Shown here piece by piece: positions 12,870 to 50,449 of a DNA stretch of 64,000 nucleotides. Origin of the DNA: Alphaproteobacteria bacterium (lineage in GTDB: Bacteria; Pseudomonadota; Alphaproteobacteria; CACIAM-22H2); contig JAEUKZ010000028.1 of the NCBI GenBank assembly GCA_016793045.1, forward strand, positions 484-64,483, read 5' to 3'. The notes under the pieces were generated by a model, which was given only the letters and a program-made list of their open reading frames with translations, was not told where the DNA came from and ran no database searches. Numbering within the stretch: the first letter of the stretch is position 1; each line of letters opens with the position of its first letter. Made by a program: the position numbers and the translations under genes.

Positions 12870-12895
12870 ATGATCCGTTTCGAGGAGTATCGACG

Positions 12896-13531: not shown

Positions 13532-13556
13532 ACTCCGCACCTTGAGTCGCAGCGCG

Positions 13557-13591
13557 CCGGAGCAGCTTGGAATCTTTACAAGCTGCTCCGG
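13557..13591 (+). terminator. Perfect 13-bp inverted repeat hairpin (ccggagcagcttg / 9-nt loop / caagctgctccgg) downstream of rplI
   Basis: Seen directly; no U-tract, so possibly a factor-dependent or GC-type terminator or a regulatory stem. Confidence 0.4.
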
Positions 13592-13673
13592 AGACTCCTA
13601 AGCTAGGCCTCAGGATTGTCGAGTTCGGGCGCGCGGGGCGGCCCGAGAATCGCAATCGGGAGGTGACCGCGCG

Positions 13674-14900: not shown

Positions 14901-14911
14901 CGCTGGCGGAG

Positions 14912-14920
14912 TTATCCACG
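14912..14920 (+). promoter_or_regulatory. DnaA-box-like 9-mer TTATCCACG (8/9 match to TTATCCACA) overlapping a TATACT -10-like hexamer upstream of dnaB
   Basis: Seen directly; single site only; approximate coordinates. Confidence 0.25.
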
Positions 14921-14990
14921 CTATACTCCCTTTGCGCTGGCGATTCGCGTTGAGCGGCCACAGACCCAGCGCGTAGGGTCGGCACCCCCG

Positions 14991-18398: not shown

Positions 18399-18402
18399 GC
18401 CG

Positions 18403-32085: not shown

Positions 32086-32214
32086 ACGCGGCGCGAGCGC
32101 CCCGCTCGCGATCTCGCGCTTGCACGCGTTGTAACATTAGTGCCACATTCCGCAACGTAAGCTGGCACGATGCAAAGTTGCGAAGCCAGCGACCCTTAAC
32201 GGGAGGAATCGAAC

Positions 32215-33267
32215 ATGCGTAGTCGTCGTGGCTTGCTTGCCACCTTGCTGTGCGGTCTCGCGACGGCCGGTTCGCTGGGTGCCGGGTCGGCGCATGCCCA
32301 GCAGCGCGGCTCGGGCGAAGTCGTCGTCTACTGCACCGTCCAGGAGGAATGGTGCCGTCCGATGATGGCAGCCTTCGAGCGCGAAACCGGCATCCGCGTC
32401 GCGATGACGCGCAAGAGCTCCGGCGAGTTCTATGCGCAGATCCGCGCCGAGGCCTCCAACCCGCGCGGCGACGTCTGGTGGGGCGGCACTGGCGACCCGC
32501 ACGTCCAGGCTGCGCAGGAGAACCTGACGCTCGAGTACCGCTCGCCGCTCCTGGCCGAACTGCACCCCTGGGCAGTGCGTCAGGCCGAGCAGACGAATTA
32601 CCGCACGGTCGGCATCTATTCGGGCGCTCTGGGCTACAGCTACAACGTCACGCAGCTTCAGCGCCGCAACCTCCCGGTGCCGCGTTGCTGGTCGGACCTC
32701 CTCAATCCCGCCTTCCGGGACGAGATCCAGGTCGCCGACCCGAATTCGTCGGGTACTGCCTACACGATGCTCGCGACCCTGGTGCAGATCATGGGCGAGG
32801 ATCCCGCCTTCACCTACATGCGCAACCTGCATCGCAATATCAATCAGTACACGCGCTCCGGGGCGGCGCCGGCGCGTTCAGCGGCGACCGGAGAAAGTCT
32901 GATCGGCATCACCTTCCTGCACGATGCGGTCACGCAGAAGGTCGGCGGCGCACCTGTCGAGATCGTGGCCCCCTGCGAGGGCACCGGCTACGAGATCGGT
33001 TCGATGTCCCTGATCCGAGGCGGCCCGAATCAGGAGAATGCACGGCGCTTCTACGACTGGGCCCTGACCGCGCAGGCGCAGGCGATCGGCGCGCAGGCGC
33101 GCGCCTACCAGCTGCCGTCGAACCGCAACGCGCCGATCCCGCCGGAAGCCCCGCGCTTCGAGAACATCCGTCTGATCGACTACAACTTCGCACGCTGGGG
33201 CGAGTCGTCCGTGCGCAATGCCCTGCTCGAGCGCTGGGGCCGCGAGGTTCGCCAGGCGCCTCGCTGA
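32215..33267 (+). CDS. ABC transporter periplasmic substrate-binding protein, FbpA/AfuA (iron(III)/sugar-phosphate) family, paralog 1
   Basis: Signal peptide; SBP family-1 fold features; about 65% identical to paralog at 35498. Confidence 0.8.
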   Translation: MRSRRGLLATLLCGLATAGSLGAGSAHAQQRGSGEVVVYCTVQEEWCRPMMAAFERETGIRVAMTRKSSGEFYAQIRAEASNPRGDVWWGGTGDPHVQAAQENLTLEYRSPLLAELHPWAVRQAEQTNYRTVGIYSGALGYSYNVTQLQRRNLPVPRCWSDLLNPAFRDEIQVADPNSSGTAYTMLATLVQIMGEDPAFTYMRNLHRNINQYTRSGAAPARSAATGESLIGITFLHDAVTQKVGGAPVEIVAPCEGTGYEIGSMSLIRGGPNQENARRFYDWALTAQAQAIGAQARAYQLPSNRNAPIPPEAPRFENIRLIDYNFARWGESSVRNALLERWGREVRQAPR

Positions 33268-35485: not shown

Positions 35486-35497
35486 GGGAGGGTATCT

Positions 35498-36520
35498 ATG
35501 CGGACCATTGCCATCCTCGCCATGCTTGCGGCCTTCCTGATCGCGCCCGGTCTGGCGCGTGCCCAGGGCGAAGTCGTCGTCTACTGCAGCGTGCTGGTCG
35601 ACTGGTGCAACCTGATGTCGCAGGAGTTCACCCGCGCCACCGGCATCCGCGTCGTGTTGACCCAGAAGGGGTCGGGCGAGACCTTCGCCCAGATCCGCGC
35701 GGAGGCGAACAATCCCCGCGGCGACGTCTGGTGGGGCGGCACCGGCGACCCGCATCTGCAGGCGGCAGAAGCCAACCTGACCGAGGAGTACCGCTCGCCC
35801 GCCCTGCCGCGCCTTCACGACTGGGCGCAGCGGCAGGCCCAGCAGTCGGGGTTCCGGACCGTCGGGATCTATGCGGGCGCGCTCGGCTTCACCTACAACA
35901 CCCAAGCTTTGGCGCGCGGGCGGATGCCCGAGCCGCGCTGCTGGCGCGACCTGCTGCAGCCGGCCTTCCGCGGCGAAGTGCAAATGTCCAATCCGCCGTC
36001 GTCGGGCACGGCCTATACTGCGCTTGCCACGCTCGTCCAGCTGTGGGGCGAGGAAGAGGCGTTCAACTACCTGCGCCAGCTTCACCGCCAGATCAACCAG
36101 TACACGCGCTCGGGGCCCGCGCCGTCGCGCAATGCCGCGCGCGGCGAGACCACGGTGGGCATCATGTTCCTGCACGATGCCGTCGCGGAAGCGATCGAGG
36201 GAGCACCGCTGCGGGTCGTAGCGCCGTGCGAGGGCACGGGGTACGAGATCGGCTCGATGTCGATCATCCGCGGCGGCCCCAATCGCGAGAATGCGCGGCG
36301 CTGGTACGAATTCGCGCTGACCCCGGCGGCCCAGGCGCTTGCGGTACGGGCGAAGTCCTACCAGATTCCCTCGCATCGCGATGCTCCGGTGCCGGAGCAG
36401 GCGCCACGCCTCGCGGACATCCGCCTGATCGACTACGACTTCGCGCGCTACGGCACGACCGCCGAGCGCAATCGCCTGATCCAGCGCTGGGAGCGCGAGG
36501 TCGGCAGCCAGCCTCGCTGA
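35498..36520 (+). CDS. ABC transporter periplasmic substrate-binding protein, FbpA/AfuA family, paralog 2
   Basis: Signal peptide; co-linear with paralog 1 including conserved N-terminal Cys pair and C-terminal ERW(G/E)REV motif. Confidence 0.8.
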   Translation: MRTIAILAMLAAFLIAPGLARAQGEVVVYCSVLVDWCNLMSQEFTRATGIRVVLTQKGSGETFAQIRAEANNPRGDVWWGGTGDPHLQAAEANLTEEYRSPALPRLHDWAQRQAQQSGFRTVGIYAGALGFTYNTQALARGRMPEPRCWRDLLQPAFRGEVQMSNPPSSGTAYTALATLVQLWGEEEAFNYLRQLHRQINQYTRSGPAPSRNAARGETTVGIMFLHDAVAEAIEGAPLRVVAPCEGTGYEIGSMSIIRGGPNRENARRWYEFALTPAAQALAVRAKSYQIPSHRDAPVPEQAPRLADIRLIDYDFARYGTTAERNRLIQRWEREVGSQPR

Positions 36521-36529
36521 ACAGAGCCA

Positions 36530-37603
36530 TTGCCCATGCCGAAGTCCGGTCCTTCATCCGTCGAATTTTCGGCCGTCACCAAGCGGTACGGAACGGTAAC
36601 AGCTGTCGACGCGGTGTCCTTCACGATCGAGCCGGGCACCTTGGTGACGCTGCTGGGGCCGTCGGGCTGCGGCAAGACGACCACACTGCGCCTGATCGCC
36701 GGGCTGGAGATCGCCAGCGAAGGGACGATCAGCATCGGCGGCCGCGATGTCACGCGCCTTTCCGCCGCGGATCGCAGCGTGAGCATGGTGTTTCAGTCCT
36801 ACGCGCTGTTTCCGCACATGTCGGTGCTCGACAACGTCGCCTATGGTCCGACCGTCTCGGGGCGGCGCAAAGCCGATGCGCGCGCGATGGCGCACGAGAA
36901 GCTCGACCTGCTCGGCCTCAAGGGCTTCGAAGGCCGGATGCCGTCGGAACTCTCGGGCGGACAGCAGCAGCGTGTGGCCGTCGCCCGTGCGCTGGTGCTC
37001 GAACCGGAGGTGCTGCTCTTCGACGAGCCGCTGTCCAATCTCGATGCCAAGCTGCGCCGCCGCGTGCGCGAGGACATCCGCGAACTGCAGCAGCGGCTGA
37101 ATCTCACCGTCGGCTACGTCACGCACGACCAGCAGGAGGCGCTTGCCGTCTCCGACCGCATCATCGTGATGTCGAATGCGCGCATCGCGCAATCAGGGCC
37201 GCCGCGCGAGCTGTACGAAGCGCCGGCCAATCCGTTCGTCGCCGACTTCATCGGCGACGCCAATCTGCTCGATGCCGAACTCCTGTCGGTGGAAGGGGCG
37301 CGCGCCCAGGTCCGCTTCGGCCCGGTCGTGCTTGACCTGCCGCACCGCGGTGCGGGCACCGGCGGGATCAAGCTTTCGATCCGGCCGGAGGCATTCCTGC
37401 TTTCCGCCACCCGTCCGAACCGGCCCTGCATTGCGGGCACCATCGCCAAGGCCGCCTATCTCGGCGCACACATGGAGTACAGCGTCACCACGGAGGGGGG
37501 CGAACTGTTCGTCGTCGATCGCGACGTGATGCGGCCCATCGCGGTCGGCTCAACGGTCTGGATCGACCTTGCCGACCATGGCGTGACGGTCGTCCCGGTC
37601 TGA
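36530..37603 (+). CDS. ABC transporter ATP-binding protein (FbpC/PotA-like, with C-terminal TOBE-like domain)
   Basis: Walker A GPSGCGKTT, LSGGQQQR, Walker B. Confidence 0.85.
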   Translation: MPMPKSGPSSVEFSAVTKRYGTVTAVDAVSFTIEPGTLVTLLGPSGCGKTTTLRLIAGLEIASEGTISIGGRDVTRLSAADRSVSMVFQSYALFPHMSVLDNVAYGPTVSGRRKADARAMAHEKLDLLGLKGFEGRMPSELSGGQQQRVAVARALVLEPEVLLFDEPLSNLDAKLRRRVREDIRELQQRLNLTVGYVTHDQQEALAVSDRIIVMSNARIAQSGPPRELYEAPANPFVADFIGDANLLDAELLSVEGARAQVRFGPVVLDLPHRGAGTGGIKLSIRPEAFLLSATRPNRPCIAGTIAKAAYLGAHMEYSVTTEGGELFVVDRDVMRPIAVGSTVWIDLADHGVTVVPV

Positions 37604-37667: not shown

Positions 37668-39254
37668 ATGGACGCACTCTCATCGGCCCGACTCTCGCTT
37701 CGCTCCGCCCTCCCGCTGGCGGTGCTCTACGTCCTTGTGATCTGGGCGAGCTATGCGGCCGGCTTCGATGAAGATGAGATCATTCCGATCTGGCCGGCGG
37801 CCGGCATCCTGATCTATGCCGCGTTCCGCTTTGGCTGGCCCGGCCTGATTCTTTTCGGTGCCCTCGACTTCGCGGCCGCTCAACTTGCCTTGCCGAGCCA
37901 CGAGCCAGCGCCGCTGATCGATGCGCTGTTCGCGCTCGCCAACATCGCGGCCGTCGCCGCCACCATGGCCTTGCCTGGCGCACGAGCGGCGTTCTTTGCC
38001 ATGTTCGAACGTTCGCGGGCGATGCTGTGGGTCCTCGCCGCGGCGGCCTCGCTATCGAGCGGCCTGTCCGCACTTCTCGCGCTCGCCATTCTGCGCACGC
38101 TGTCCGCCTTCGCCCTCGCCCCCGAGCCGTTGCTGTGGGAGGTCGGGCTGCGCTGGTTTCTGTCCGACTACGTCGGGACGGTGATCGCCGCACCGCTGCT
38201 GCTGGCATGGTCGCGCCACCGTGGTGAAGGCGGTGCGACGATGTCGGTTCACCTGGCCTGTGCGGCTGTCGCGGTCGCGGTCATGCTCGCCCTCACGGTG
38301 CTGATCCCGCTGCCACCCGGCGCCTCGCGATTCTCCCTTCTGCTGGGACTTTCCCCATTGCTGCTCTGGGCGGCGTTGACGACGAGCCCGCTCGGTCTCA
38401 CCGCGCTGCTGGCCGTCACCGGCACCGGCGCCGCGGCCCTGACGATCGAAGTGATCGGGCCTGCATCGGGGATGCGGCCGGAAACCGCGATCCTGGTCGT
38501 CCAGGCCTATCTGCTCGCAGCCGCCTTGTCGGCACTCGTGGTCCTGGTCAGCCGCCGCGAACAGACGCGGCTCGCCTACGAACGCGGCAATCTCGCGCGC
38601 TTCTTCTCCCCCCGCGTCGTCGAACTGGTCGCCGCCGGGTTCGAGGAGGCCGGGCGTGATCGCGTGCAGGACGTCGCGGTGCTGTTCATCGACATCCGGG
38701 GCTTCACGGGCTTCGCGGAAACCGAAGCGCCCGCCCGCGTGATGAGCGTCCTGCGCGGCTTCGCAGCGCGCGTCGAGACCCGCGTCTTCGACCACGACGG
38801 CACGCTCGACAAGTACCTCGGCGACGGGGTCATGGCGACGTTCGGCGTTCCGAAGGCGAGCGTCGCCGACGCCCGCAACGCGCTCGCCTGCGCGCGCGGC
38901 CTGCTCGAAGACGTCGCCGAATGGAACCGCGAACGAACCACGGGCGGCGAACCGCCGATCGAGGTCGGGATCGGCATCCACCTCGGCCCCGTGGTGCTTG
39001 GAACGATCGGCAGCGAGCGGACGAAGTCGCTCTCGGTGCTCGGCGACACCGTCAACACAGCATCGCGGCTGCAGGCACTGTCGCGCGAACTCGGTACGCA
39101 GCTGGTGACGAGCGGCGACGTCGTCAACGCCGTTCGCGCGGAGGCCGAGCCAGGCGCGCAGACACTTCTCGCGGGGCTGCGATCCGCCGGCGCGCGCCCG
39201 GTCCGCGGGCGCAGCGCGGCGACGGAGATCTGGATTCTCGACGAAACGCGCTGA
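37668..39254 (+). CDS. MASE1-like membrane sensor fused to class III adenylate/guanylate cyclase domain
   Basis: About 300 aa polytopic N-terminal region, C-terminal CHD motifs (FIDIRGFT, KYLGDG, GDTVNTASR). Confidence 0.75.
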   Translation: MDALSSARLSLRSALPLAVLYVLVIWASYAAGFDEDEIIPIWPAAGILIYAAFRFGWPGLILFGALDFAAAQLALPSHEPAPLIDALFALANIAAVAATMALPGARAAFFAMFERSRAMLWVLAAAASLSSGLSALLALAILRTLSAFALAPEPLLWEVGLRWFLSDYVGTVIAAPLLLAWSRHRGEGGATMSVHLACAAVAVAVMLALTVLIPLPPGASRFSLLLGLSPLLLWAALTTSPLGLTALLAVTGTGAAALTIEVIGPASGMRPETAILVVQAYLLAAALSALVVLVSRREQTRLAYERGNLARFFSPRVVELVAAGFEEAGRDRVQDVAVLFIDIRGFTGFAETEAPARVMSVLRGFAARVETRVFDHDGTLDKYLGDGVMATFGVPKASVADARNALACARGLLEDVAEWNRERTTGGEPPIEVGIGIHLGPVVLGTIGSERTKSLSVLGDTVNTASRLQALSRELGTQLVTSGDVVNAVRAEAEPGAQTLLAGLRSAGARPVRGRSAATEIWILDETR

Positions 39255-40142
39255 TCACAGCCCCGCCCGTGCCGCCTCCCGGCGAAGGTAGTCGTTCCCC
39301 ATCCGCGCATAGGTGAGCGGATGCGCCTTGGCCGGGTCCTGCTCGGCCTCGACGACCAGCCATCCCGCGTAGCGCCGCTTGGCGAGCACGGCGAAGAGGC
39401 TCGGATAGTCGACGATCCCGTCGCCTGGCACCGTGAAGACGCCGGCCAGGACCGCCTTGAGGAACGGCCAGTCCGCAGCCTTTGCCTGCTCCAGGACTCC
39501 GCGGCGGATGTCCTTGCAGTGGACGTGCACGATCCGGCCCGCATGCTGCTTCGCGCACGCGAGCGGGTCACCGCCGGCGTAGGTGAGATGACCCGTGTCG
39601 AGGAGCAGCCCCACCTCCGGTCCAGTCGACGCCATCAGCCGATCGATCTCGCCCGCTGTCTCGACCACCGTCCCCATGTGATGATGGTAGGCCAGCGCGA
39701 CGCCCTGCCCGGCGAGATAGCGCGCGACCTCGCCGATGCGGCTCGTGAACTGCGTCCACTCGGCGTCGCTCATCCGCGGCCGCTGCGACAGCGGCGTGCC
39801 CTTCTCGCCATGGACGGCGCCTGACACTTCGGCGAAGACCATCGCTGTGCAGCCCATCGCCTTGTGCAGCGCGAGATGGTCCTGCATCGCCGCGATCTCC
39901 GCGGCCGCATCGCGCTCACGCAGCCGTGCGCTGTACCAGCCCGACACGACCGCGAGCCCGTGCCGCGCCATGATCGGGCGCAGCAGGTCAGCCTTGCGCG
40001 GGAACTTGTTGCCAAGTTCCATGCCGTCATAGCCCGCCTGCTTCGCCTCCGACAGGCAGGTTTCGAGCGGCGTATCGCCGCCCAGTTCCGGCATGTCGTC
40101 GTTGGTCCAGGTCAGCGGGTTGATCCCGATCCGCACGGCCAT
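39255..40142 (-). CDS. iolE: Sugar-phosphate isomerase/epimerase (xylose-isomerase-like TIM barrel), IolE-like inosose dehydratase
   Basis: N-terminus RIGINPLTWTNDD and overall length typical of IolE. Confidence 0.7.
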   Translation of the reverse strand: MAVRIGINPLTWTNDDMPELGGDTPLETCLSEAKQAGYDGMELGNKFPRKADLLRPIMARHGLAVVSGWYSARLRERDAAAEIAAMQDHLALHKAMGCTAMVFAEVSGAVHGEKGTPLSQRPRMSDAEWTQFTSRIGEVARYLAGQGVALAYHHHMGTVVETAGEIDRLMASTGPEVGLLLDTGHLTYAGGDPLACAKQHAGRIVHVHCKDIRRGVLEQAKAADWPFLKAVLAGVFTVPGDGIVDYPSLFAVLAKRRYAGWLVVEAEQDPAKAHPLTYARMGNDYLRREAARAGL

Positions 40143-40256
40143 GACGGCTCTCTCCCTAGGTGTTTGGCCTTGACGCGCCGCGCACGTTACGGACTTATGA
40201 CGCCGCCAACAAGGGCGTTCGGCCCTGCAGGAAATGCCCAGGAATCAGAGGACGCG

Positions 40257-41249
40257 ATGATCACCTTCGCCATGTTCGGGGCTGGCCGGATCGGCAAGAT
40301 CCACGCCGCCAACATCGCCGGCGCCGAAGGCGCGCGGCTCGCCTATATCGTCGATGTCGACCGCGCGGCGATGGACCATATCGCCAAGCTGACCGGTGCC
40401 AGGCCCGCGACCCGCGAGGAAGTCCTCGCCGACCGATCGGTCGACGCCGTCGTCATCGCCTCGCCGACCGACACCCACGCGGAGCTCTGCGTCGCCGCCG
40501 CCAAGGCCGGCAAGGCGATCTTCTGCGAAAAGCCGATCGACCTGTCGCTGAAGCGCGTCGATGCCTGCCTCGCCGCCGTGCGCCGCGCCGGCGTTCCGAT
40601 GATGGTCGGCTTCAACCGCCGCTTCGATCCCAACTTCGCCGCGCTGAAGTCACGCATGGACAAGGGCGAGATCGGCACGCTCGAGCAGGTCATCATCACC
40701 AGCCGCGACCCGGGCCTGCCGCCGATCACGTACCTGAAGGCATCCGGCGGCCAGTTCCGCGACATGACGATCCACGACTTCGATACGGCGCGCTGGCTGC
40801 TTGGGGAAGACCCGGCGGAAGTCTATGCGACGGGAAGCTGCCTCGTCGATCCGGGCCTCGCCAAGATCGGCGACATCGATTCCTGCATGGTCGTGATGCG
40901 GACCGCCTCAGGCAAGCTCGCGCACATCAACAACAGCCGCCGCGCGACGTATGGCTACGACCAGCGGGTCGAGGCCTTCGGCTCGAAGGGCCGGATGATC
41001 GCAGGCAACGTCGCCCCGACGACCGTCGAACTGGCGAACGGCGATACGGTGAGTGCCGACAAGCCGCTGCACTTCTTCCTCGAACGCTATGCCCAGGCCT
41101 ATCGGATCGAACTTGCGGCGTTCCTGAACGCGCTCGCGAAAAAGCGGCCGATGCCGGTCGGCGCCGCCGATGGTCGCGCCGCGCTGGTGCTCGCGGAAGC
41201 GGCCCTCGCGTCGCTCAAGTCGGGCCGCGCTGTGAAGCCGAAGTTCTGA
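40257..41249 (+). CDS. iolG: myo-inositol 2-dehydrogenase (Gfo/Idh/MocA family; IdhA/IolG-like)
   Basis: GAGRIGKxHA Rossmann motif, FCEKP, NRRFDP, ITSRDP and RDMTIHDFD motifs closely matching rhizobial IdhA from memory. Confidence 0.85.
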   Translation: MITFAMFGAGRIGKIHAANIAGAEGARLAYIVDVDRAAMDHIAKLTGARPATREEVLADRSVDAVVIASPTDTHAELCVAAAKAGKAIFCEKPIDLSLKRVDACLAAVRRAGVPMMVGFNRRFDPNFAALKSRMDKGEIGTLEQVIITSRDPGLPPITYLKASGGQFRDMTIHDFDTARWLLGEDPAEVYATGSCLVDPGLAKIGDIDSCMVVMRTASGKLAHINNSRRATYGYDQRVEAFGSKGRMIAGNVAPTTVELANGDTVSADKPLHFFLERYAQAYRIELAAFLNALAKKRPMPVGAADGRAALVLAEAALASLKSGRAVKPKF

Positions 41250-41260: not shown

Positions 41261-42037
41261 ATGTCCCAACGTCTCGATGGCCGAATCATCCTGATCACCG
41301 GCGGCACCCAGGGCGTCGGCGAAGCGACCGCGCGCATCTGCGCCCAGGCCGGCGCCGCCGGCCTCTGCATCACCGGGCGCGACGCCCGGCGCGGCGAGGC
41401 GGTCGCGGCCGAGCTGTCGAAGACCACGCCGACGATCTTCGTGCAGGCCCTGCTCGAAGACGCGGATCAGGTCCGCGGCATTGCCGCGGCGACGGAGAAG
41501 CGGTTCGGATACTTCGACGGGCTGGTCAATGCCGCCGGCCTCACCGATCGCGGAACGATCGAGGACACGCCGGTCGAGCTGTGGGACCGGCTGATGGACG
41601 TCAACGTCCGCGCGCCGTTCATCCTGACGCAGGAGATGGCGCGCCGGCTGGAGGCCAAGAAAAAGCCTGGCGCGATCGTGAACATCATCACGCGGTCGAG
41701 CCACGGCGGGCAGCCCTTCCTCACCGCCTATTCGACGTCCAAGGGCGCGCTGGCGACGCTGACCAAGAACACCGCGCACGGCCTGCGCAAGCACCGAATC
41801 CGCGTCAACGGCATCAATGTCGGCTGGATGGATACCCCCGGCGAACATGCCATCCAGATGCGCGAGGGCAAGCCCGCCAACTGGCTCGAGATCGCGGAAC
41901 GCACGCAGCCCTTCGGCCGCCTCGTGAAGGCCCAGGACATGGCGGTGCTGTCGCTCTATCTCCTCAGCGACGCGTCGATGCCGATGACTGGCGCGCTGAT
42001 CGACTACGACCAGAACGTCATGGGCGCCTACGACTGA
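41261..42037 (+). CDS. SDR-family oxidoreductase
   Basis: ITGGTQGVG and YSTSKGA motifs. Confidence 0.75.
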   Translation: MSQRLDGRIILITGGTQGVGEATARICAQAGAAGLCITGRDARRGEAVAAELSKTTPTIFVQALLEDADQVRGIAAATEKRFGYFDGLVNAAGLTDRGTIEDTPVELWDRLMDVNVRAPFILTQEMARRLEAKKKPGAIVNIITRSSHGGQPFLTAYSTSKGALATLTKNTAHGLRKHRIRVNGINVGWMDTPGEHAIQMREGKPANWLEIAERTQPFGRLVKAQDMAVLSLYLLSDASMPMTGALIDYDQNVMGAYD

Positions 42038-42039
42038 CC

Positions 42040-42552
42040 GTGTCGGACACAGGCCCGAAGGCGCTGCGGACCGCGCGGCTCGTTCTGCGGCCGCTCGCGG
42101 CGCGCGATGTCGATGCCCTTCACCCGATCCTGACGTCGACGTCGGTCCGCCGCTTCCTGTTCGACGGCGAGACGGTCAGCCGCGACTTCCTCGCTGCAGC
42201 CATCGACGCATCGATCCGCAACTTTGCCGACCGCGGGTGGGGCCTCTTCGGCATCACGCTCGAAGACGATGTGCCGCAGGGCCTGTGCGGGTTTCACATG
42301 GTCGGCACGCCGGCCGAGCGCCAACTCGTCTACGCACTGGCGCCGGCGATCTGGGGCCAGGGGCTTGGGGGCGAAGCGGTCGGCGCGGTGGTCAAGCACG
42401 CGCTCGACGTCTGCGGCATGAAGTCGATCGTCGCCGCCGTCGATGCCCCAAACACCGCATCGATCGCCATCCTGCGACGACTCGGCTTCGAGCCGGAAGT
42501 CCGTCTCGTCGAGCGTGGCCGCGACGTCATACGCCACGTCCTGCGCGGCTGA
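42040..42552 (+). CDS. GNAT-family N-acetyltransferase (RimJ/RimL-like)
   Basis: GTG start 3 nt after SDR stop; GNAT core (QGLGGEAVGAV). Confidence 0.65.
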   Translation: MSDTGPKALRTARLVLRPLAARDVDALHPILTSTSVRRFLFDGETVSRDFLAAAIDASIRNFADRGWGLFGITLEDDVPQGLCGFHMVGTPAERQLVYALAPAIWGQGLGGEAVGAVVKHALDVCGMKSIVAAVDAPNTASIAILRRLGFEPEVRLVERGRDVIRHVLRG

Positions 42553-42562: not shown

Positions 42563-42745
42563 TCAGCGCTTGTCGAGTTTGTGCGCCTCGTGTGCGCGCT
42601 TGGCCCGGCTTGCCTCTGCCTCGCGCTTTTCGCGTTCGGCCTTCGGTTGGCCGAAGCGCGCGCGATTGTCGGCTGCCTTGGCGGCGTCCTCCTCGCGCGC
42701 CTTGCGCTTGCGGACCAGGCGCAGATTGACGGTTTCGGCCATCAC
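42563..42745 (-). CDS. DUF4169-like highly charged mini-protein (60 aa)
   Basis: Lys/Arg/Glu-rich; ATGA overlap with upstream CoA-transferase gene. Confidence 0.45.
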   Translation of the reverse strand: MMAETVNLRLVRKRKAREEDAAKAADNRARFGQPKAEREKREAEASRAKRAHEAHKLDKR

Positions 42746-43968
42746 CCCTCCCCGCCGCCCTTGCGCCGCTTGGCGGCCAAGATCCCCTCTTCGGTCAGCG
42801 CGGCGATCTCGCTCGCCAAATAGCCGGCCTCTTCGAGCACCGCCGCGCCGTCTCGGTTGAAGCGCGGCGGCGTGCGGCGGACCGAGCCCGGCGTCCGGCT
42901 GAGCTTGATCGGGATGCCGGTGCCGCGATAGTCGCCGCTTTCGACGACCATCCGCCGGTGAACCGCATGCGGATCGGCGAGCACTTCCGGAATGTCCATG
43001 ACCGCGCCGGCGGGAACGCCGATGCGGATCAGCCGCTCCGCGAGCGCGCCGCCATCGTGGCCGGCGAGCAGCCCCTCCAGTTCGCCGCGCAGCGCGTCGC
43101 GATTGACCACCCGGTCGCCGTTGGTGAGGAAGCGCTTGTCCTTGGAGAGCGCCGGCGCGCCGAGTTCGGCGCAGAGCCGCTCGAATTGCCGATCATTGCC
43201 GACCGCGAGAAAGACCGAGCGCCCGCGGGTCTTGTAGCTGTCATAGGGCGAAATGTTCGGATGCGCGTTGCCGATGCGCTGCGGCGGCTTGCCCGACATC
43301 AGGTAGTTCGCGGCCTGCGGATGGAGCAGCGAGATGGCGCAATCGTACAGGCTGCAGTCGACCGCCTGGCCCTTGCCGGTGCGCGCACGCTCGAACAGCG
43401 CCATCAGGATGCCGATCGCGGCGTTGAGGCCGGTGCCGAGATCCACGATCGGCGTGCCCATCCGCACCGGCCCCGATTCCGGCGTGCCGTTGATGCTCAT
43501 CAGGCCCGACACCGCCTGCACCGCGGCGTCGTAGCCCGGCAGGCCGCCACGCGGGCCGTCCGGCCCGAAGCCGGTGATGTGGCAATAGACCAGGCGCGGG
43601 AACTTCTTCGCCAGCGTGTCGGCGTAACCGATGCCCCATTTCTCCAGGGTGCCGGGCTTGAAGTTGTGGATGAGTACGTCTGCGCCTTCGAGCAGGCGCA
43701 TCAGCACCTCGCGCCCTGCCGGCTTGGCGAGGTCGAGGGCCACTCCCCGCTTGTTCCGGTTGACGCCGACGAAATACGACGCGGCGTCATCGCGGAACGG
43801 CGGGCCCCAGTCGCGCACCTCGTCGCCCTGCGGCGGCTCGATCTTGATCACGTCAGCGCCGTGGTCGCCCAGGATCTGCGTGCAGTACGGACCGCCCAGG
43901 ACGCGGGTCAGGTCGATCACCTTCACGCCGGCCAGCGCACCCTGCGCAGGCTGTGTCTCAGCCGCCAT
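42742..43968 (-). CDS. Family III CoA-transferase (CaiB/BaiF family)
   Basis: N-terminal GVKVIDLTRVLGGPYCTQILGDHGADVIKIE and conserved Asp region. Confidence 0.8.
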   Translation of the reverse strand: MAAETQPAQGALAGVKVIDLTRVLGGPYCTQILGDHGADVIKIEPPQGDEVRDWGPPFRDDAASYFVGVNRNKRGVALDLAKPAGREVLMRLLEGADVLIHNFKPGTLEKWGIGYADTLAKKFPRLVYCHITGFGPDGPRGGLPGYDAAVQAVSGLMSINGTPESGPVRMGTPIVDLGTGLNAAIGILMALFERARTGKGQAVDCSLYDCAISLLHPQAANYLMSGKPPQRIGNAHPNISPYDSYKTRGRSVFLAVGNDRQFERLCAELGAPALSKDKRFLTNGDRVVNRDALRGELEGLLAGHDGGALAERLIRIGVPAGAVMDIPEVLADPHAVHRRMVVESGDYRGTGIPIKLSRTPGSVRRTPPRFNRDGAAVLEEAGYLASEIAALTEEGILAAKRRKGGGEG

Positions 43969-43982
43969 TGCTCCTCCGAATG

Positions 43983-44705
43983 TCAGGCTGCGGCCGCCCA
44001 GGCAGCCGCAAAACGTGGATAGGTTTCGGCAATCTCGTCGCGCACCCGACCGGCGAGCAAGGCCCTTTCGGCCTCATCCGGTCCCGGCGTCTGCGGCACG
44101 TCGCCTGCGACGTCATAGTCGAACCCGGTCTGCGCACGCACGCTCGCCGCGTCCTCACCGGGATGCGTGCTCGCAAGGCGGAAGCGGCCCGCGGAGAATT
44201 CGAACACGCAACGGCCGGTCACCAGCGCGACCGGCCCGCCCCTGCGATAGATGCGGGGAGCGCTTGTTCCGGGCGCCGAGATGAAGTCCACCTTGGGAAC
44301 GAGGACGCGCGGGCTGTGTTCCTCGCGGAAGAGGATCACGCGCGGGATCAGGAAATAAAGATAGGCCGAGCCGAACGAGCCGGGGAAACGATGCGTCAAC
44401 GACGGATAGTCGCCGAGCCCGACGAGATTGATGTTCGCAGCTCCATCGATCTGGCCGCCGCCGAGGAAGAAGGCGTCGATGCGACCCTGCGCCGCACAAT
44501 CGAACAGTTCGCGCCCCCCGTCGGTGAAGCTGTTGTGCTTGATGCTGCCGAGCATCAGCACGCGCGTAGCGCCGCCGGACCTGGCGCGCGTCAGCAGCGC
44601 CGCGGCGCCCGGGATCGGCGACGACGCTCCAACGGCGATGGTGCGCGCACCGTCCAGCAGGCGTGACAGGGTGACGACGAGCAGCTCGGTGCGGGCGCGG
44701 TCCAT
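43983..44705 (-). CDS. CoA-transferase subunit B-like (family I, 3-oxoacid/glutaconate type)
   Basis: C-terminal 240 aa of ORF 43983-45119; start ATG overlaps subunit A stop (TGATG). Confidence 0.65.
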   Translation of the reverse strand: MDRARTELLVVTLSRLLDGARTIAVGASSPIPGAAALLTRARSGGATRVLMLGSIKHNSFTDGGRELFDCAAQGRIDAFFLGGGQIDGAANINLVGLGDYPSLTHRFPGSFGSAYLYFLIPRVILFREEHSPRVLVPKVDFISAPGTSAPRIYRRGGPVALVTGRCVFEFSAGRFRLASTHPGEDAASVRAQTGFDYDVAGDVPQTPGPDEAERALLAGRVRDEIAETYPRFAAAWAAAA

Positions 44706-45526
44706 CACGCCGCCGCCTTCGCGGCGAGAAACCCATCGAGCCATTTGCGGAAGCCCGCCTCGGTTCGCGCCGCCGCGGCGTATGCCGCGATCGCTGCCTC
44801 GTCGGCCGGATAGATGTCCAGCAGTCCGATCGGCCACGCGCCGCGCGGCGCCACGGCAATGCGCTCGACATAGAGCGCCGGCACGACACCGGCAGCAGTG
44901 GCTTCGTCGGCGAGTAGCGAACCGTCGACGATCTCTTCCACGGTCACGATGCTCGCCTTGGCCGCGTGAGCCATGGTGACGAGCTCGCGCCTTCGCCCGA
45001 TCCAGATGTTGCCGTCTTTGTCCGCCTTGGCGGCGTGGAACAGCGCGACGTCGGGCCGGATCGCCGGCAGCGTGACGATCGGGTCCCCCGCCGCAAATGG
45101 ATTGTCGATGACGCGCCAATCCGTGCGGTTGGCAAGAATGTCGCTGCCGATCAGCCCGCGCAGCGGCATGAAGGGAATGCCCTTTTCCGCCGCCTGCAGC
45201 GCCGCATGGATCGCAGGACAGGTCGTGTCGCGCATCCGCAGCGTCCGTCCGACGATCGCGGCGTTGAACCGCGGCGCCGGTCCGGCCTCGCCGAGCGTCA
45301 CCGCTGCAGCCTCGAGCTCGGCCACGCAGCCCGCACCGACCAGGATGTCGGCCTGCATTCCGCTGGTCGGCACGGCGACAAGCCGCAAGTCGCGGATGCC
45401 ACGTCTGGCGATCGCCCGTGTCGCTGCAATCGACACGCCGCTGTAGTCAGGCGGGATCGCGACCAGCATTCCCGGCCGGATCGCAGCCACGAGGTCTTCG
45501 ATGGTCGTCAGCATCGGCCCGATCAT
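44705..45526 (-). CDS. CoA-transferase subunit A-like (family I)
   Basis: Internal ATG chosen (alternative start 45514); glutaconate/3-oxoadipate CoA-transferase A-like. Confidence 0.65.
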   Translation of the reverse strand: MIGPMLTTIEDLVAAIRPGMLVAIPPDYSGVSIAATRAIARRGIRDLRLVAVPTSGMQADILVGAGCVAELEAAAVTLGEAGPAPRFNAAIVGRTLRMRDTTCPAIHAALQAAEKGIPFMPLRGLIGSDILANRTDWRVIDNPFAAGDPIVTLPAIRPDVALFHAAKADKDGNIWIGRRRELVTMAHAAKASIVTVEEIVDGSLLADEATAAGVVPALYVERIAVAPRGAWPIGLLDIYPADEAAIAAYAAAARTEAGFRKWLDGFLAAKAAA

Positions 45527-45566
45527 ACGCAGCCCAGCGAGTGCGGCAAAGCGCCCTGCGCGCGGG

Positions 45567-47138
45567 TCAGGCTTCCCAGACCGTGCGGCTCTGCTCGCGC
45601 ATGAACTGCGGGACATAGAATGGCCCGAGCCCACCCTTGTTGGTCACGCCCGATCCCTTCCACCCGCAGAAGCTCTGGATGCCCGGCCAGGCGCCGGTCG
45701 TCGCGCCGGAGCGCCGGTTGGCGTAGAGCACGCCGGCCTCCGCGGTCGCAAGGAAGCGATCGATTTCAGCCGGGTCGCGGCTGAACAGACCGGCTGTGAG
45801 GCCATAACCGACGGCGTTGCCGTGCGCGATCCCTTCCGCAAGATTGTTGCACGCGACGACCGAGAGGAAGGGCAGGAAGAGTTCTTCGCGGTTGAGACGG
45901 TGATCGGACGGCAATCCCGTGACCACGGTGGGTTCGGCATACCAGCCGTGCGCGTAGATGCCGCCGCGCAGCCGCGTGCCGCCGCGCACGACCTGTCCGT
46001 CATGGTCAGCGCGCGCGACGGCCTCGAGGAAGCGTTCTCCGGCATCGGCGCCGATCAGCGGCCCCATGTAGACCTCGCGCTGCTCCGGCGTCCCGATGAC
46101 GATGCGCGACGTCTTTTCGGCGAGTACATCGACGAATGTCTGCAGCACCGATGCCTCGACATAGGCGACCGAGCATGCACTGCATTTCTGCCCCTGAAGC
46201 CCGAAGGCCGAGCGCATCACGCCCTCCGCGGCGACGTCGAGATCGGCCGCCGCGGTGACATAGGTCGGATTCTTGCCGCCCATCTCGACGATGACCGGAC
46301 GCGCAAACGGCCCCGCGGCGACCTTGCGGTAGATCTCCATGCCGACGGCATGACTGCCCGTGAAGGCGATGCCGTCGACGCCGGGATGATCGGCGAGGTG
46401 GCGCCCGGCACCTTCGCCGCACAGCAGGCTGACCAGTCCGTGCGGCAGCCCGGCTTCCTCGCAGATTGCCACCAGCATCGCGCCGGTGAGGCAGGCCTTC
46501 GCGCTCGGCTTGTAGACGACCGCATTGCCGCCGACCAGCGCCCCCGTCATCATCCCGACCGACAGCGCCAGCGGAAAGTTGAACGGCGCGATCACTCCGA
46601 AGACACCGACCGGCCGCAGCACGACCTGGGTCGCCTCGTTGGGAAAGGCGCGCGCCATGGCGCGGGCATAGCCCTCATTGCGCTCCATTTCGTCGCAATA
46701 GTAGGTGATCAGGTCGATCGCCTCTTCGGCTTCGCCCATCGATTCGAGCCGCGACTTGCCGACCTCGTAGAGGCACGCCATGCCGAACTCGAAGCGACGC
46801 GCGCGCAGAACCTCGGCCAGGCGCCGCAGGGTCGCCACGCGCTCGCGCCAGTGCAGCGCGGCCCATGCGGGCTGTGCGGCCTTGGCCGCGCGCACCGCGC
46901 GATCGACCGCGCCCGGCGACGCCGCCACGAACTCGCCGATGACGATGCGATCGTCGATCGGGCTGACGGTCGAGAACCGCACGCCGTCATCGTCCACCTG
47001 ATCGCCAATGATATTCGGCCAGAACCGACCAAACGCCGCGCGGAAGCCGGGCAGCGCCGTATCGAGATAGTCGTGCAGCGGCGCGAAATCTGCGGTGACG
47101 TTCGAATAGGTGACGCGCGGCAGGGCAGCGACGGACAT
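45567..47138 (-). CDS. Aldehyde dehydrogenase, 1-pyrroline-5-carboxylate dehydrogenase (RocA)-like subfamily
   Basis: EMGGKNP, GQKCSA catalytic Cys motif and C-terminal region co-linear with RocA-type P5CDH (from memory); GAGGG RBS. Confidence 0.8.
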   Translation of the reverse strand: MSVAALPRVTYSNVTADFAPLHDYLDTALPGFRAAFGRFWPNIIGDQVDDDGVRFSTVSPIDDRIVIGEFVAASPGAVDRAVRAAKAAQPAWAALHWRERVATLRRLAEVLRARRFEFGMACLYEVGKSRLESMGEAEEAIDLITYYCDEMERNEGYARAMARAFPNEATQVVLRPVGVFGVIAPFNFPLALSVGMMTGALVGGNAVVYKPSAKACLTGAMLVAICEEAGLPHGLVSLLCGEGAGRHLADHPGVDGIAFTGSHAVGMEIYRKVAAGPFARPVIVEMGGKNPTYVTAAADLDVAAEGVMRSAFGLQGQKCSACSVAYVEASVLQTFVDVLAEKTSRIVIGTPEQREVYMGPLIGADAGERFLEAVARADHDGQVVRGGTRLRGGIYAHGWYAEPTVVTGLPSDHRLNREELFLPFLSVVACNNLAEGIAHGNAVGYGLTAGLFSRDPAEIDRFLATAEAGVLYANRRSGATTGAWPGIQSFCGWKGSGVTNKGGLGPFYVPQFMREQSRTVWEA

Positions 47139-47198: not shown

Positions 47199-47924
47199 TC
47201 AGAACAGGCTGCCCTGGCGGACGTCGCGCGGACGCTTCGCCGGCTTTGCGGCAGGCTCGTCGTTCGCCGGCGGCGCAAGGCAGCCGGGATCGTCGTGCCG
47301 CACGTCGTTGACATAGGCCGAAACCGGCGTGACCGCGAACCAGTCTCCCGGCGGCGCCTGGATCAGCGGCATGGGATCGACGCTCGCATCGAGCCAGGCG
47401 TCGTAATCCGCGGGCGCAAGCACGATCGGCACCCGGTCGTGATAGTCCGTCATCATGCCGGTCGCCGCCGTGTTGACGATGGTGAATGTTTCGACGATCT
47501 CGCGCTCTGGCGACTGCCATCGCTCCCACAGACCGGCGAAGGCGAAGGGCCGACCATCGCGCATGCGGAAAAGGAACGGATGCTTCGGCGGATTCTGGCC
47601 GACCGTCTGCCATTCATAGAAGCCGTCGGCCGGCACGAGACAGCGCCGCGCACGGAAGGCGGCGCGGTAGGCGGGCTTCTCTGCCACGCTCTCGCCGCGC
47701 GCGTTGATCATGCGGCTCCCCACCGACAGGTCCTTGGCCCAGGACGGCACCAACCCCCATCGCAGCAGATCGATCGCGCGCGCACCCGCGGCGCGACGGA
47801 TCACCGGCACGCGTTGCGTCGGCGCCACGTTGTAGCGCGGCGGTAGGTTCGGCGCCGGGTTCCTGAACCCGAACACCGCACGCAGCCCCTCAACCGGGGT
47901 CGTAATCAGGTAGCGACCGCACAT
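47199..47924 (-). CDS. SOS-response-associated peptidase (SRAP/YedK), abasic-site processing protein
   Basis: N-terminal MCGR with catalytic Cys2, conserved SRAP core. Confidence 0.8.
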   Translation of the reverse strand: MCGRYLITTPVEGLRAVFGFRNPAPNLPPRYNVAPTQRVPVIRRAAGARAIDLLRWGLVPSWAKDLSVGSRMINARGESVAEKPAYRAAFRARRCLVPADGFYEWQTVGQNPPKHPFLFRMRDGRPFAFAGLWERWQSPEREIVETFTIVNTAATGMMTDYHDRVPIVLAPADYDAWLDASVDPMPLIQAPPGDWFAVTPVSAYVNDVRHDDPGCLAPPANDEPAAKPAKRPRDVRQGSLF

Positions 47925-48109
47925 GCGCCGGACCCTGTCCTTCCTTTGTCGCTTGGCCGTGCGTGGTTTGCGCGATATTCCTTCGTTCGTCCAGTGCGTC
48001 GGCGCGCGGGGCCACGTCATTCGAAGGCACTAAGACCACCGCTTGAAATCCGTCCGCCGGCCATACTTAATGGTCGCCAATGTCCGCAGCACCCCAGGGG
48101 AGTCACGCG

Positions 48110-50449
48110 ATGGCTAAATTCGGCATGGGCCAGTCGGTCCGGCGCGTCGAGGATGCTCGCTTCATCACCGGCGCCGGCCGCTACAACGACGACATCAATC
48201 TGCCCGGCCAGTGCTACGCATTCTTCCTGCGCTCGCCGCACGCCCATGCGCGGATCAAGAGCATCGACGTCGGTGCCGCCAAGCGCGTGCCGGGCATCCT
48301 CGGCGTCTTCACCGGCGCCGATGTCAAGGCAGCCGGCCTCGGCGACATGCCGTGCGACGGCGTCGTGCCGAATCGCGACGGCTCCAAGATGCAGGTGCCG
48401 CCCAGGCCGATCGTCGCCGTCGATACGGTCCGCTTTGTCGGCGACACCGTCGCGATCGTGGTCGGCGAAACGCTGGCCGCCGCACGCGACGCGGCCGAGA
48501 CGATCGAGGTCGACTACGACCCCCTGCCCGCCGTCGTCGACACCAAAGGCGCGCTGGCGGGCGATGCGCCGCAGGTCTGGCCGTTCGCCAAGAAGAACCT
48601 CGCCGTCGACTGGGGCCTCGGCGACGAGGCGGCAACCGACGCAGCCTTCAAGAAGGCCGCGCGCATCATCAGCGTCGACTTGATCAACAACCGCGTCGTC
48701 CCCAATTCGATGGAGCCGCGCGGTGCGCTCGGCGATTTCGCCGCGGGCGAGAACAAGTTCACGCTCTACACTTCGAGCCAGGGCGGCCACACGATCCGCA
48801 AGACGATCGCGAAGGACATCTTCCACGTCCCGGAATCGTCGCTGCGCGTCGTGACCGGCGATGTCGGCGGCGGCTTCGGGATGAAGATCTTTCCCTACCC
48901 CGAGTACGCCGGCGTCTTGTTCGCCGCGCGCGCGCTCAAGCGCCCGGTCAAGTGGACGCCCGACCGCAGCGATGCGTTCCTCACCGACACGCACGGCCGC
49001 GACAACGTTACGCGCGGCGAACTCGCGATCGACAAGGACGGCAAGTTCCTGGCGCTTCGGGTCGAGATCGTCGCCAATCTCGGCGCCTATCTTTCCCACT
49101 ACGGACCGTTCATTCCGACCTTCGCCGGCGCCAAGATGCACAACGGGGTCTACGGGCTCAGCGCCATCTACATCCACGTGCTGGGGGTCTACACCCATAC
49201 TGCACCGGTCGACGCCTATCGCGGTGCCGGGCGCCCGGAAGCGAACTATCTCGTCGAGCGGCTCGTCGACGTCGCCGCGCGCGAAACCGGTCTCGGTCCG
49301 GTCGAGATCCGCAGGCGCAACTTCATCCCGCCATCAGCCATGCCCTACACGACCGCGGCCGGCGCGGTCTACGATAGCGGCGAATTCGCCCGCAATCTCG
49401 ACGACGCGCTGAAGGCGATCGACTGGCAGGGCTTTCCGCAGCGCCGCGCCGAATCCGAACGCGCCGGCAAGCTTCGCGGCATCGGCCTCGCCACCTACAT
49501 CGAGGCCTGCGGCGGGGCACCCGACGAGACCGCCGAGATCCACTTCATGCCGGCGGGCGAGGTTCATGTGCTGGTCGGCAACCAGTCGAACGGCCAGGGC
49601 CACGAGACGGCCTACATGCAGCTCATTCACGACCGGCTGGGCATCGACTTCGACAAGATCAAGGTGATCCAGGGCGACACCGACCAGATCCAGTACGGCC
49701 GCGGGACCGGCGGCAGCCGCGCCCTCTCGGTCGGCGGCGGGGCCATCGTCAATGCGTCGGAGCTGATCGTCACCAAGGGCAAGAAGATCGCCGGCCATCT
49801 GATGGAGACGTCGGAGGCCGACATCGAATTCGCCAACGGCCAATTCGTCGTCGCCGGCACCGATCGGGCGATGTCGATTTTCGACGTCGCCGCCGCCGCG
49901 CGCGACCCGAAGAAGCTCCCCGTCGGCATGGCGCCGGGCCTTGACGAGAAGGCCAACTACAACCCGGCCGACGCGACCTATCCCAACGGCTGCCACATCG
50001 TCGAGGTCGAGATCGACGCCGCGACCGGCGTGCCGCGGATCGTCAACTACGTGATCGTCGACGATTTCGGCAAGGTCATAAACCCGATGCTCGTCGCGGG
50101 CCAAGTTCACGGCGGCACGGTGCAAGGGATCGGACAAGCCCTTCTCGAAGGCTGCCAATACGACCCCGCGTCCGGCCAGCTCCTGACCGGCTCGTTCATG
50201 GACTATTGCATGCCGCGCGCCGACGACGTGCCGTCCTTCAACTTCGCCTACAACGAGGTGCCGTGCGCGCACAACGTGCTCGGCGTGAAGGGCGCGGGCG
50301 AGGCCGGCTCGATGGGCGCGCCGCCGGCGGTGATCAATGCCATCGTCGACGCGCTGCAGCCCTACGGCGTGCGCCACATCGACATGCCGGCGACGGCCGA
50401 GCGGATCTGGCGCCTGATCGAGCGCAAGACGCCGCGCGCAGCCGAATAG
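48110..50449 (+). CDS. Xanthine-dehydrogenase-family molybdopterin-binding large subunit, form II CoxL-like
   Basis: About 780 aa; AYRGAGR active-site loop variant (form II); no medium or small subunit genes adjacent. Confidence 0.8.
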   Translation: MAKFGMGQSVRRVEDARFITGAGRYNDDINLPGQCYAFFLRSPHAHARIKSIDVGAAKRVPGILGVFTGADVKAAGLGDMPCDGVVPNRDGSKMQVPPRPIVAVDTVRFVGDTVAIVVGETLAAARDAAETIEVDYDPLPAVVDTKGALAGDAPQVWPFAKKNLAVDWGLGDEAATDAAFKKAARIISVDLINNRVVPNSMEPRGALGDFAAGENKFTLYTSSQGGHTIRKTIAKDIFHVPESSLRVVTGDVGGGFGMKIFPYPEYAGVLFAARALKRPVKWTPDRSDAFLTDTHGRDNVTRGELAIDKDGKFLALRVEIVANLGAYLSHYGPFIPTFAGAKMHNGVYGLSAIYIHVLGVYTHTAPVDAYRGAGRPEANYLVERLVDVAARETGLGPVEIRRRNFIPPSAMPYTTAAGAVYDSGEFARNLDDALKAIDWQGFPQRRAESERAGKLRGIGLATYIEACGGAPDETAEIHFMPAGEVHVLVGNQSNGQGHETAYMQLIHDRLGIDFDKIKVIQGDTDQIQYGRGTGGSRALSVGGGAIVNASELIVTKGKKIAGHLMETSEADIEFANGQFVVAGTDRAMSIFDVAAAARDPKKLPVGMAPGLDEKANYNPADATYPNGCHIVEVEIDAATGVPRIVNYVIVDDFGKVINPMLVAGQVHGGTVQGIGQALLEGCQYDPASGQLLTGSFMDYCMPRADDVPSFNFAYNEVPCAHNVLGVKGAGEAGSMGAPPAVINAIVDALQPYGVRHIDMPATAERIWRLIERKTPRAAE

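Follow-up and report, generated by a model that had tools for sequence, protein, structure and literature searches.

What do five tightly packed genes do together when they encode an aldehyde dehydrogenase (ALDH), the two subunits of one CoA-transferase family, a member of another such family and a small charged protein? This question is raised by the block at positions 42563-47138 of a 64,000-nucleotide stretch of DNA from an Alphaproteobacteria bacterium (lineage CACIAM-22H2; contig JAEUKZ010000028.1, positions 484 to 64,483), which was analysed as a whole and is called the window hereafter. A preliminary description had read the block as a catabolic unit of five genes that combines a semialdehyde dehydrogenase, a two-subunit family I CoA-transferase (A and B), a family III CoA-transferase (CaiB) and a DUF4169-like mini-protein. 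Our comparisons lead to a different picture. The unit that is conserved is the three-gene module A-B-CaiB, of which ALDH and DUF4169 are lineage-specific neighbours, and B has no glutamate at the position where class I CoA-transferases carry their nucleophile. We consider it probable that the block is composite and that, in its core, CaiB would supply an acyl-CoA which A/B would convert by a chemistry other than CoA transfer.

The block is filled by five co-directional open reading frames (ORFs) on the minus strand. Their GC content at third codon positions is 0.80-0.86, as for real genes in a window whose GC content, used for comparison, is 68%. The number of genes, their coordinates and their tight packing were thus as first described, and Pfam profile searches bore out the families proposed at the level of the fold (ALDH, two CoA_trans subunits, family III, DUF4169).

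Fold and affinity of the A/B pair

A (44705-45526, minus strand, 273 aa) is the alpha subunit of a protein with the glutaconate-CoA-transferase (Gct) fold and B (43983-44705, minus strand, 240 aa) is the beta subunit. Their Pfam CoA_trans matches are weak (9e-13 and 6e-6, respectively) and neither protein reaches an NCBIfam cut-off; the fold, in two subunits encoded by adjacent genes, is recognized from the Pfam and PDB matches together with the A-B adjacency. In single-sequence searches of the PDB, A matched AibA (2.7e-24), GctA (2e-22) and IpdA (2e-16), and the best match of B was AibB (3.9e-17). With profiles, the Gct, Aib and Ipd families scored about equally against A (1e-27 to 1e-28; GctA 2.8e-28, IpdA 1.6e-27), and against B the scores lay between 1e-23 and 1e-25 (GctB 1.1e-24), versus 1e-14 for IpdB, the weakest. 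Such near-equal scores indicate that the A/B clade is a separate lineage and not an orthologue of GctAB, AibAB or IpdAB. This lineage is large: we retrieved more than 7,800 homologues of A, the best 120 of which are 68-99% identical to it, and the identity of A/B is 59-75% across alphaproteobacterial orders and Comamonadaceae. No characterised member of the clade was found in the literature or in the curated NCBIfam library.

Absence of the catalytic glutamate in B

In class I transferases, the thioester between enzyme and CoA forms on a beta-subunit glutamate, which is Glu54 in GctB and is catalytically essential (PMC5380842). At the same site, AibB has Cys56 where glutaconate CoA-transferases conserve their catalytic glutamate (PMC7756340), and IpdB has Gly57 (PMC5380842). 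In B, the residue opposite AibB Cys56 and GctB Glu54 is Met51 (phmmer; hhalign probability 99.8%, ~31% identity). A shift of the alignment by one residue restores no glutamate, since Leu52 is also hydrophobic and largely conserved. Moreover, the substitution is not peculiar to the window: position 51 is L, V, M or I in 56 homologues from related loci. In 54 full-length distant representatives it is L, I, V or M, with a rare T or C and not one E or D; these were drawn from a library clustered at 50% identity where the family amounts to 129 clusters at E<=1e-30. Judged by these alignments and by the published mechanism, the whole A/B clade is without the nucleophile for class I CoA transfer, and with the glutamate absent from B, CoA transfer by that mechanism is very unlikely. 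What stands of the two-subunit family I CoA-transferase first proposed is therefore the fold and the two-subunit layout, but not the catalytic glutamate of the class I mechanism. The relatives that lack this glutamate have been assigned other activities. IpdAB did not transfer CoA with the short-chain acyl substrates tried and was assigned as a COCHEA-CoA hydrolase (PMC5380842), and AibAB is a 3-methylglutaconyl-CoA decarboxylase (PMC7756340). Members of the Gct fold that lack the glutamate and perform a non-transferase chemistry are thus already known.

Other residues are strongly conserved in the pair. In B, H130 (LFREEH) is nearly invariant, D87, N93 and R106 are also kept, and a loop of 11 residues that in AibB carries Glu72, in contact with Cys56, is deleted. 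In A, the DTTCPA motif is invariant among close homologues, and its C103 aligns with position 105 of IpdA (RDTTCPAI in A versus REMDEGMV in the wild type, 6co6, and REMDAGMV in the variant, 6coj). The residue that differs in 6coj is reportedly the catalytic Glu105, according to a structural study of IpdAB from 2018; A has Cys103 in its place. The invariance of C103 in the 80 genome loci described below is partly circular, because the pattern used to retrieve them contained TCPA. We considered C103 as a sign of new chemistry, an idea weakened by the finding that a homologue of A (36% identity) in Nocardioides JS614 has the same cysteine. This distant A/B homologue lies at 6974-8715 of locus L178 (Nocardioides sp. 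JS614 plasmid pNOCA01), beside a gene of the acetate--CoA ligase family, in a cluster that, from a reading of its annotation, looks like an alkene-monooxygenase/coenzyme-M pathway. Its sequence suggests that it belongs to a different clade and is probably a true transferase.

The family III enzyme CaiB

CaiB (42742-43968, minus strand, 408 aa), of the CaiB/BaiF family and of the SUGCT/YfdE type, contains a full-length CoA_transf_3 domain (residues 12-373, 1.6e-126). Its closest structures, aligned end to end, are Brucella 4ED9 (1e-93), human SUGCT (4e-77) and Escherichia coli YfdE (2e-75). The counterpart of G145-Y146-D147 in these alignments is GYD in SUGCT and 4ED9 and AYD in YfdE. The aspartate of the G-Y/F-D motif is the catalytic residue of family III. 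As had been proposed, CaiB is thus a bona fide family III member with its catalytic Asp motif, D147, intact; it looks functional and is probably the only real CoA-transferase in the block.

Its substrate is less easily assigned. Although CaiB shares the full-length fold and the catalytic Asp motif with SUGCT, YfdE and 4ED9, it stays far under every equivalog cut-off: the best NCBIfam model, succinate--glutarate CoA-transferase (NF052585), gives 347 bits versus a cut-off of 750 bits, and the oxalate and mesaconate models are also under theirs. A short dicarboxylate is a reasonable default. On roseobacter plasmids, CaiB homologues of ~57% identity occur in another kind of cluster, with an acyl-CoA dehydrogenase, an iron alcohol dehydrogenase and a succinate-semialdehyde dehydrogenase.

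Conservation of the A-B-CaiB module

The neighbourhood of A was surveyed in 80 genome loci, each from a different species and picked out by a pattern that included TCPA; a large share of these loci are metagenome-assembled genomes (MAGs) of Pseudolabrys/Xanthobacteraceae. B directly follows A in all 78 loci with room for it. Of the 71 loci with enough sequence, 10 have a CaiB orthologue (59-72% identity) after B; in nine of them it comes within 45-82 bp, and in the tenth CaiB lies 1.5 kb downstream. The same order is found on plasmids. A-B-CaiB at 59-64% identity is present on those of Paracoccus denitrificans PD1222 (PDEN_RS22900-22910) and Pseudosulfitobacter, and also in clusters of Cereibacter sphaeroides KD131, Sagittula and a plasmid of the betaproteobacterium Diaphorobacter, so that the triad was found in all five Rhodobacterales/Comamonadaceae plasmid clusters inspected. 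In Rhodobacterales, it heads a conserved cluster with a divergent IclR regulator and an ABC transporter; downstream are genes for a 2-hydroxyacid dehydrogenase, a class II aldolase, an FGGY kinase, an acetolactate-synthase-like thiamine diphosphate enzyme and a molybdenum oxidoreductase.

ALDH and DUF4169 behave differently. The ALDH gene (45567-47138, minus strand, 523 aa; Pfam Aldedh 2.5e-120) encodes a protein with both catalytic residues of its family, the general base E285 (EMGGKN) and the nucleophile C319 (GQKCSA), whose roles are well established in ALDHs. Its closest PDB structures are PutA and the 1-pyrroline-5-carboxylate (P5C) dehydrogenase of Thermus thermophilus (282-264 bits, versus ~205 bits for the next ALDH class), which agrees with the P5C-dehydrogenase-like identity first given to it, P5C dehydrogenases/PutA being its nearest subfamily. 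However, the RocA models TIGR01237 and PRK03137 give 351.5 versus 659.65 bits and 368.3 versus 648 bits, respectively, and scores so far under the P5C dehydrogenase cut-offs indicate a paralogous clade.

The complete arrangement, SRAP-ALDH-A-B-CaiB-DUF4169 followed on the opposite strand by GNAT, SDR and GFO genes, was found only in the two closest relatives, loci L180 (ALDH 94% identical) and L181 (84%). In the ORF calls of L181, the A gene is split at 1912-2765 into two ORFs (204 aa and 89 aa), with no Pfam match on record for either. The cause is a frameshift that made the gene a pseudogene, or else a fault in the assembly. In a third locus, L182, whose ALDH is 68% identical, six unrelated genes occupy the 4.2 kb that separate ALDH from A/B, and B and CaiB are parted by a DPBB_1 gene. 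At 60-66% identity (three loci), no A, B or CaiB gene was seen within 8 kb of the ALDH orthologue, whose neighbours are SRAP and an MFS transporter in one case, sarcosine-oxidase genes, a DAO-type oxidoreductase and an aminotransferase in the second, and a TRAP-type transporter with a class III aminotransferase in the third. All four plasmid ALDH homologues (49-54% identity) are flanked by an aminotransferase and an FAD-binding oxidoreductase, and no proline dehydrogenase was found among the genes examined around ALDH. Conversely, only one of the 80 genome loci has an ALDH orthologue no more than 10 kb from A/B, at a distance of 5.9 kb. Elsewhere, ALDH appears to belong to the oxidation of amine- or amino-acid-derived aldehydes. 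Its conserved neighbour is SRAP, without a metabolic role, which is adjacent to or near ALDH in loci L004, L011, L180, L182 and L183.

The mini-protein at the other end of the block (42563-42742, minus strand, 59 aa, highly charged) does belong to DUF4169, as had been suggested (PF13770, 9.7e-18; 64.6 bits versus a gathering cut-off of 25, residues 3-57). Its gene adjoins B or CaiB in seven loci of the close clade (A ~70% or more identical) as well as in L180 and L181, and L182 has an ORF of 58 residues at the same position. In 80 independent metagenomic DUF4169 loci, whose proteins are 45-66% identical, B is next door only once; the usual neighbours there are fumC, AsmA-family and SspB-like genes (identified by reading the sequences), and not CoA enzymes. 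A homology search with DUF4169 gave only 8 close matches, a plasmid search gave none, and no study of DUF4169 function was found in the literature. In four DUF4169 loci (including L113, 5192-5482), a protein of ~96 aa that looks by eye like a ribbon-helix-helix protein is encoded directly beside DUF4169, so that the two genes might form a pair, perhaps regulatory or of a toxin-antitoxin kind.

The five-gene catabolic unit suggested at first is therefore not a conserved one, since ALDH is near A/B in one locus of 80 and B beside DUF4169 in one of 80. The co-conservation expected of such a unit fails for ALDH and DUF4169, which have other contexts elsewhere, but A, B and CaiB are kept together. 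The conserved unit is the A-B-CaiB module, and ALDH and DUF4169 are its neighbours in particular lineages.

Organization of the block in the window

The junctions between the genes are short. A and B overlap by one base in a TGATG sequence (TGA 44707-44705, ATG 44705-44703), exactly as first described. At the junction of CaiB and DUF4169, an ATGA overlap had been announced; the sequence there reads GGGGTGATGG, that is, a second one-base TGATG overlap within GTGATG. The CaiB stop is TGA 42744-42742, and the DUF4169 start is placed at ATG 42742-42740 because its homologues open with MAET. Between B and CaiB there are 14 bp, with a GGAGGAG ribosome-binding site, and between ALDH and A there are 40 bp. 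Two starts are candidates for A, ATG 45526 and ATG 45514.

A scan of 6 kb for promoters returned one weak sigma-70-like site on the minus strand (45522-45549, TTGCCG-16 nt-TATGAT, 9/12 matches), in the ALDH-A gap, versus 0.4 +/- 0.7 expected in shuffled sequences, which is not significant. It is at most suggestive of an internal promoter for A-B-CaiB-DUF4169. No terminator was found after the block by a terminator scan, and an Rfam scan of 40-50 kb gave no match. In this window, ALDH and DUF4169 may be co-transcribed with the module.

Upstream, the SRAP gene, for an SOS-response-associated peptidase (47199-48020, minus strand, Pfam SRAP 2.3e-69), is 60 bp from ALDH. Downstream, the block is closed by a convergent GNAT acetyltransferase gene (42028-42552, plus strand, Acetyltransf_3 2.1e-24), which ends 10 bp past the DUF4169 stop. 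This gene is the last of a plus-strand run converging on the block, after GFO/IDH/MocA (40245-41249) and SDR (41261-42037) genes, and the GNAT arrangement is also found in L180. A xylose-isomerase-like TIM-barrel gene (39255-40142, minus strand) lies beside this run. In 33 of the 83 loci analysed, B is directly followed by a gene for a distant relative (~25% identical) of the window GFO/IDH/MocA protein, perhaps a sign of a functional link.

Further away, the plus strand carries an ABC importer of the PotD/Afu/Fbp type (32200-37603). It comprises two solute-binding-protein genes (32200-33267 and 35486-36520), one for a long fused permease (33176-35485) and one for an ATPase that includes a TOBE_2 domain (36521-37603). 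Several relatives, like the plasmid clusters of Rhodobacterales, have a transporter of this general class next to A/B; the binding proteins of the window importer have no detectable similarity to those of Paracoccus and Pseudosulfitobacter. Between this importer and the sugar-type oxidoreductase genes lies a MASE1 sensor fused to an adenylate/guanylate cyclase domain (37668-39254, plus strand), which is syntenic in L181.

On the other side of the block, SRAP is divergent from a gene for a molybdenum cofactor (MoCo) protein, a molybdopterin-binding subunit of the xanthine-dehydrogenase/aldehyde-oxidase type (48080-50449, plus strand, 789 aa), which has no FeS or FAD subunit genes beside it and is followed by an inositol monophosphatase gene. 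The order MoCo-Inositol_P-Sua5 is syntenic in at least one relative, L182, and MoCo occurs with SRAP, sometimes also with Inositol_P, in L001 and L010. A link between this protein and the molybdenum enzyme of the Paracoccus cluster was rejected, since nothing in that cluster matches the window protein at E<=1e-8; in Cereibacter, the enzyme of the Paracoccus type bears the annotation S/N-oxide reductase. This annotation, together with rhodanese genes in the Rhodobacterales-type clusters, raised the possibility of an organosulfur theme. In locus L175 (Diaphorobacter sp. HDW4B plasmid, 8989-18783), the triad lies ~5-6 kb from genes annotated as cysteine dioxygenase and 3-sulfinopropanoyl-CoA desulfinase, with a glutathione reductase gene and a glutathione S-transferase-like gene between them, possibly an organosulfur context as well. 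We did not retain this theme, to which the JS614 cluster had also pointed, because the JS614 pair is of the other clade, its B apparently keeping the glutamate, and the remaining associations are anecdotal.

Discussion

The scenario that we favour, and judge probable, is that of a composite block with A-B-CaiB as its core. In this scenario, CaiB would move CoA to a carboxylic acid, most likely a short dicarboxylate, from a donor thioester that the analogy with SUGCT and YfdE suggests to be succinyl-CoA or acetyl-CoA. The A/B pair would bind the acyl-CoA product and either decarboxylate a glutaconyl-type thioester, as AibAB does, or cleave its substrate by a hydrolytic or lyase reaction, as in IpdAB; the product would then enter ordinary acyl-CoA metabolism. 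That A/B acts on the product of CaiB, the type of reaction and the substrate are points that we infer from relatives and gene order.

Several observations weigh against this scenario. No CaiB orthologue adjoins A/B in 61 of the 71 genome loci, and a GFO/IDH/MocA oxidoreductase gene follows B in 33 of 83, mostly in Pseudolabrys/Xanthobacteraceae MAGs; in other lineages B is followed by the gene for a 390-aa protein without a Pfam family or by unrelated genes. Other neighbours of A/B are heterogeneous: creatinase-, dimethylglycine-dehydrogenase- and agmatinase-like genes (by reading), methylenetetrahydrofolate reductase, or a sugar kinase with an aldolase. From such varied neighbourhoods no substrate emerges, and A/B might use no CoA-ester at all. 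The reaction type that we suggest is drawn solely from relatives that are ~30% identical. Moreover, C103 is also found in the JS614 homologue whose B apparently keeps the glutamate (LLVEGA), so that this cysteine is not diagnostic of a new chemistry. Finally, ALDH is on the same strand and 40 bp from A, which makes a local functional link or co-transcription possible.

How does the pair compare with the known systems? GctAB of Acidaminococcus fermentans (PDB 1POI), with which this branch was founded, is the best profile match of both A and B, but GctB forms its thioester on Glu54 (PMC5380842), whereas the A/B clade has methionine or another hydrophobic residue at that site. What sets the clade apart from AibAB and IpdAB is the methionine at the AibB cysteine site, the cysteine at the IpdA glutamate site, the loop deletion, the context and the recurring family III partner. 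We hold, tentatively and short of calling it probable, that A/B could represent a third functional class of Gct-fold enzymes lacking the glutamate, with a reaction, on an acyl-CoA or some other substrate, unlike those of AibAB and IpdAB, carried as a portable module in several catabolic clusters and widespread in Alphaproteobacteria and in some Betaproteobacteria.

A specific form of our scenario makes A/B a soluble decarboxylase of the glutaconyl- or 3-methylglutaconyl-CoA type, like AibAB of Myxococcus xanthus (PDB 5MZW-5N03), with CaiB loading a free unsaturated dicarboxylate onto CoA. Both pairs have the two-subunit Gct fold and a non-acidic residue in place of the beta glutamate (Cys56 in AibB, Met51 in B), AibA and AibB are the top single-sequence PDB matches, and CaiB is nearest to transferases of C5/C6 dicarboxylates (the succinate--glutarate model, and SUGCT with its substrate hydroxymethylglutarate). 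However, the identity is ~31%, the GctAB and IpdAB profiles score as well, the AibB loop whose Glu72 contacts Cys56 is missing, and CaiB is attached to the pair in A-B-CaiB. The substrate of AibAB comes from the dehydration of 3-hydroxy-3-methylglutaryl-CoA (HMG-CoA), and the aib operon contains genes for an HMG-CoA synthase, a LiuC-type dehydratase and the AibC reductase; these genes were seen neither in the window nor in the related neighbourhoods examined. We regard this form as rather unlikely.

It is less likely still that A/B is a hydrolase or a retro-Claisen lyase acting on a beta-keto or cyclic acyl-CoA, as IpdAB of Mycobacterium and Rhodococcus (PDB 6CO6, 6COJ, 6CON), which acts on an acyl-CoA (PMC5380842). 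The fold is the same, the beta glutamate is missing in both, the alpha subunits are similar (1.6e-27), C103 lies exactly at the position of IpdA Glu105, and the frequent GFO/IDH/MocA and SDR neighbours could make keto intermediates. Yet the residue at that position is a cysteine here, the similarity of the beta subunits is the weakest of the three families (1e-14), and no steroid-catabolism or KstR2-type gene context was seen around A/B.

The initial reading, in which A/B is a working class I CoA-transferase that forms with CaiB and ALDH a route from a semialdehyde to an acid and then to an acyl-CoA, has become improbable. In its favour are the Pfam CoA_trans matches, the translationally coupled two-subunit layout and five tightly packed genes whose order two close relatives share. 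It conflicts with the absence of the glutamate from B and its clade, both relatives in the same situation being non-transferases (PMC5380842, PMC7756340), and with the lack of co-conservation of ALDH and DUF4169 with A/B. As for ALDH itself, its likeness to the RocA/PutA P5C dehydrogenases (nearest subfamily, catalytic Glu and Cys, homologues beside FAD-dependent amine oxidoreductases) is tempered by its scores far under their cut-offs. Least probable of all is a role for A/B outside catalysis or outside CoA chemistry (as a scaffold or binding subunit, or as an enzyme of free acids), with an incidental link to CaiB, which would fit the 61 of 71 loci without an adjacent CoA-activating enzyme and the very diverse contexts, but is opposed by the 59-75% identity and the invariant polar residues of B (D87, N93, R106, H130), which argue for a constrained active site, and by the recurrence of the A-B-CaiB order in distant lineages with 45-82 bp gaps or overlaps.

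These results bear on how such loci are read. Tight packing, and even translational coupling, as seen here for ALDH and DUF4169, can come from a lineage-specific juxtaposition without a shared function. The chemistry of the two glutamate-less relatives studied so far came as a surprise, one being a decarboxylase that needs no cofactor and the other a hydrolase that opens a ring. This makes it reasonable to search for yet another reaction in a third clade, which has invariant residues of its own. The presence of the triad in the genetically tractable Paracoccus denitrificans PD1222 makes the question directly testable. Thousands of A/B pairs are labelled 'glutaconate CoA-transferase', 'CoA transferase' or 'CoA synthetase' in databases and, if the whole clade lacks the transferase nucleophile, such labels would mislead pathway reconstruction in many soil and marine Alphaproteobacteria.

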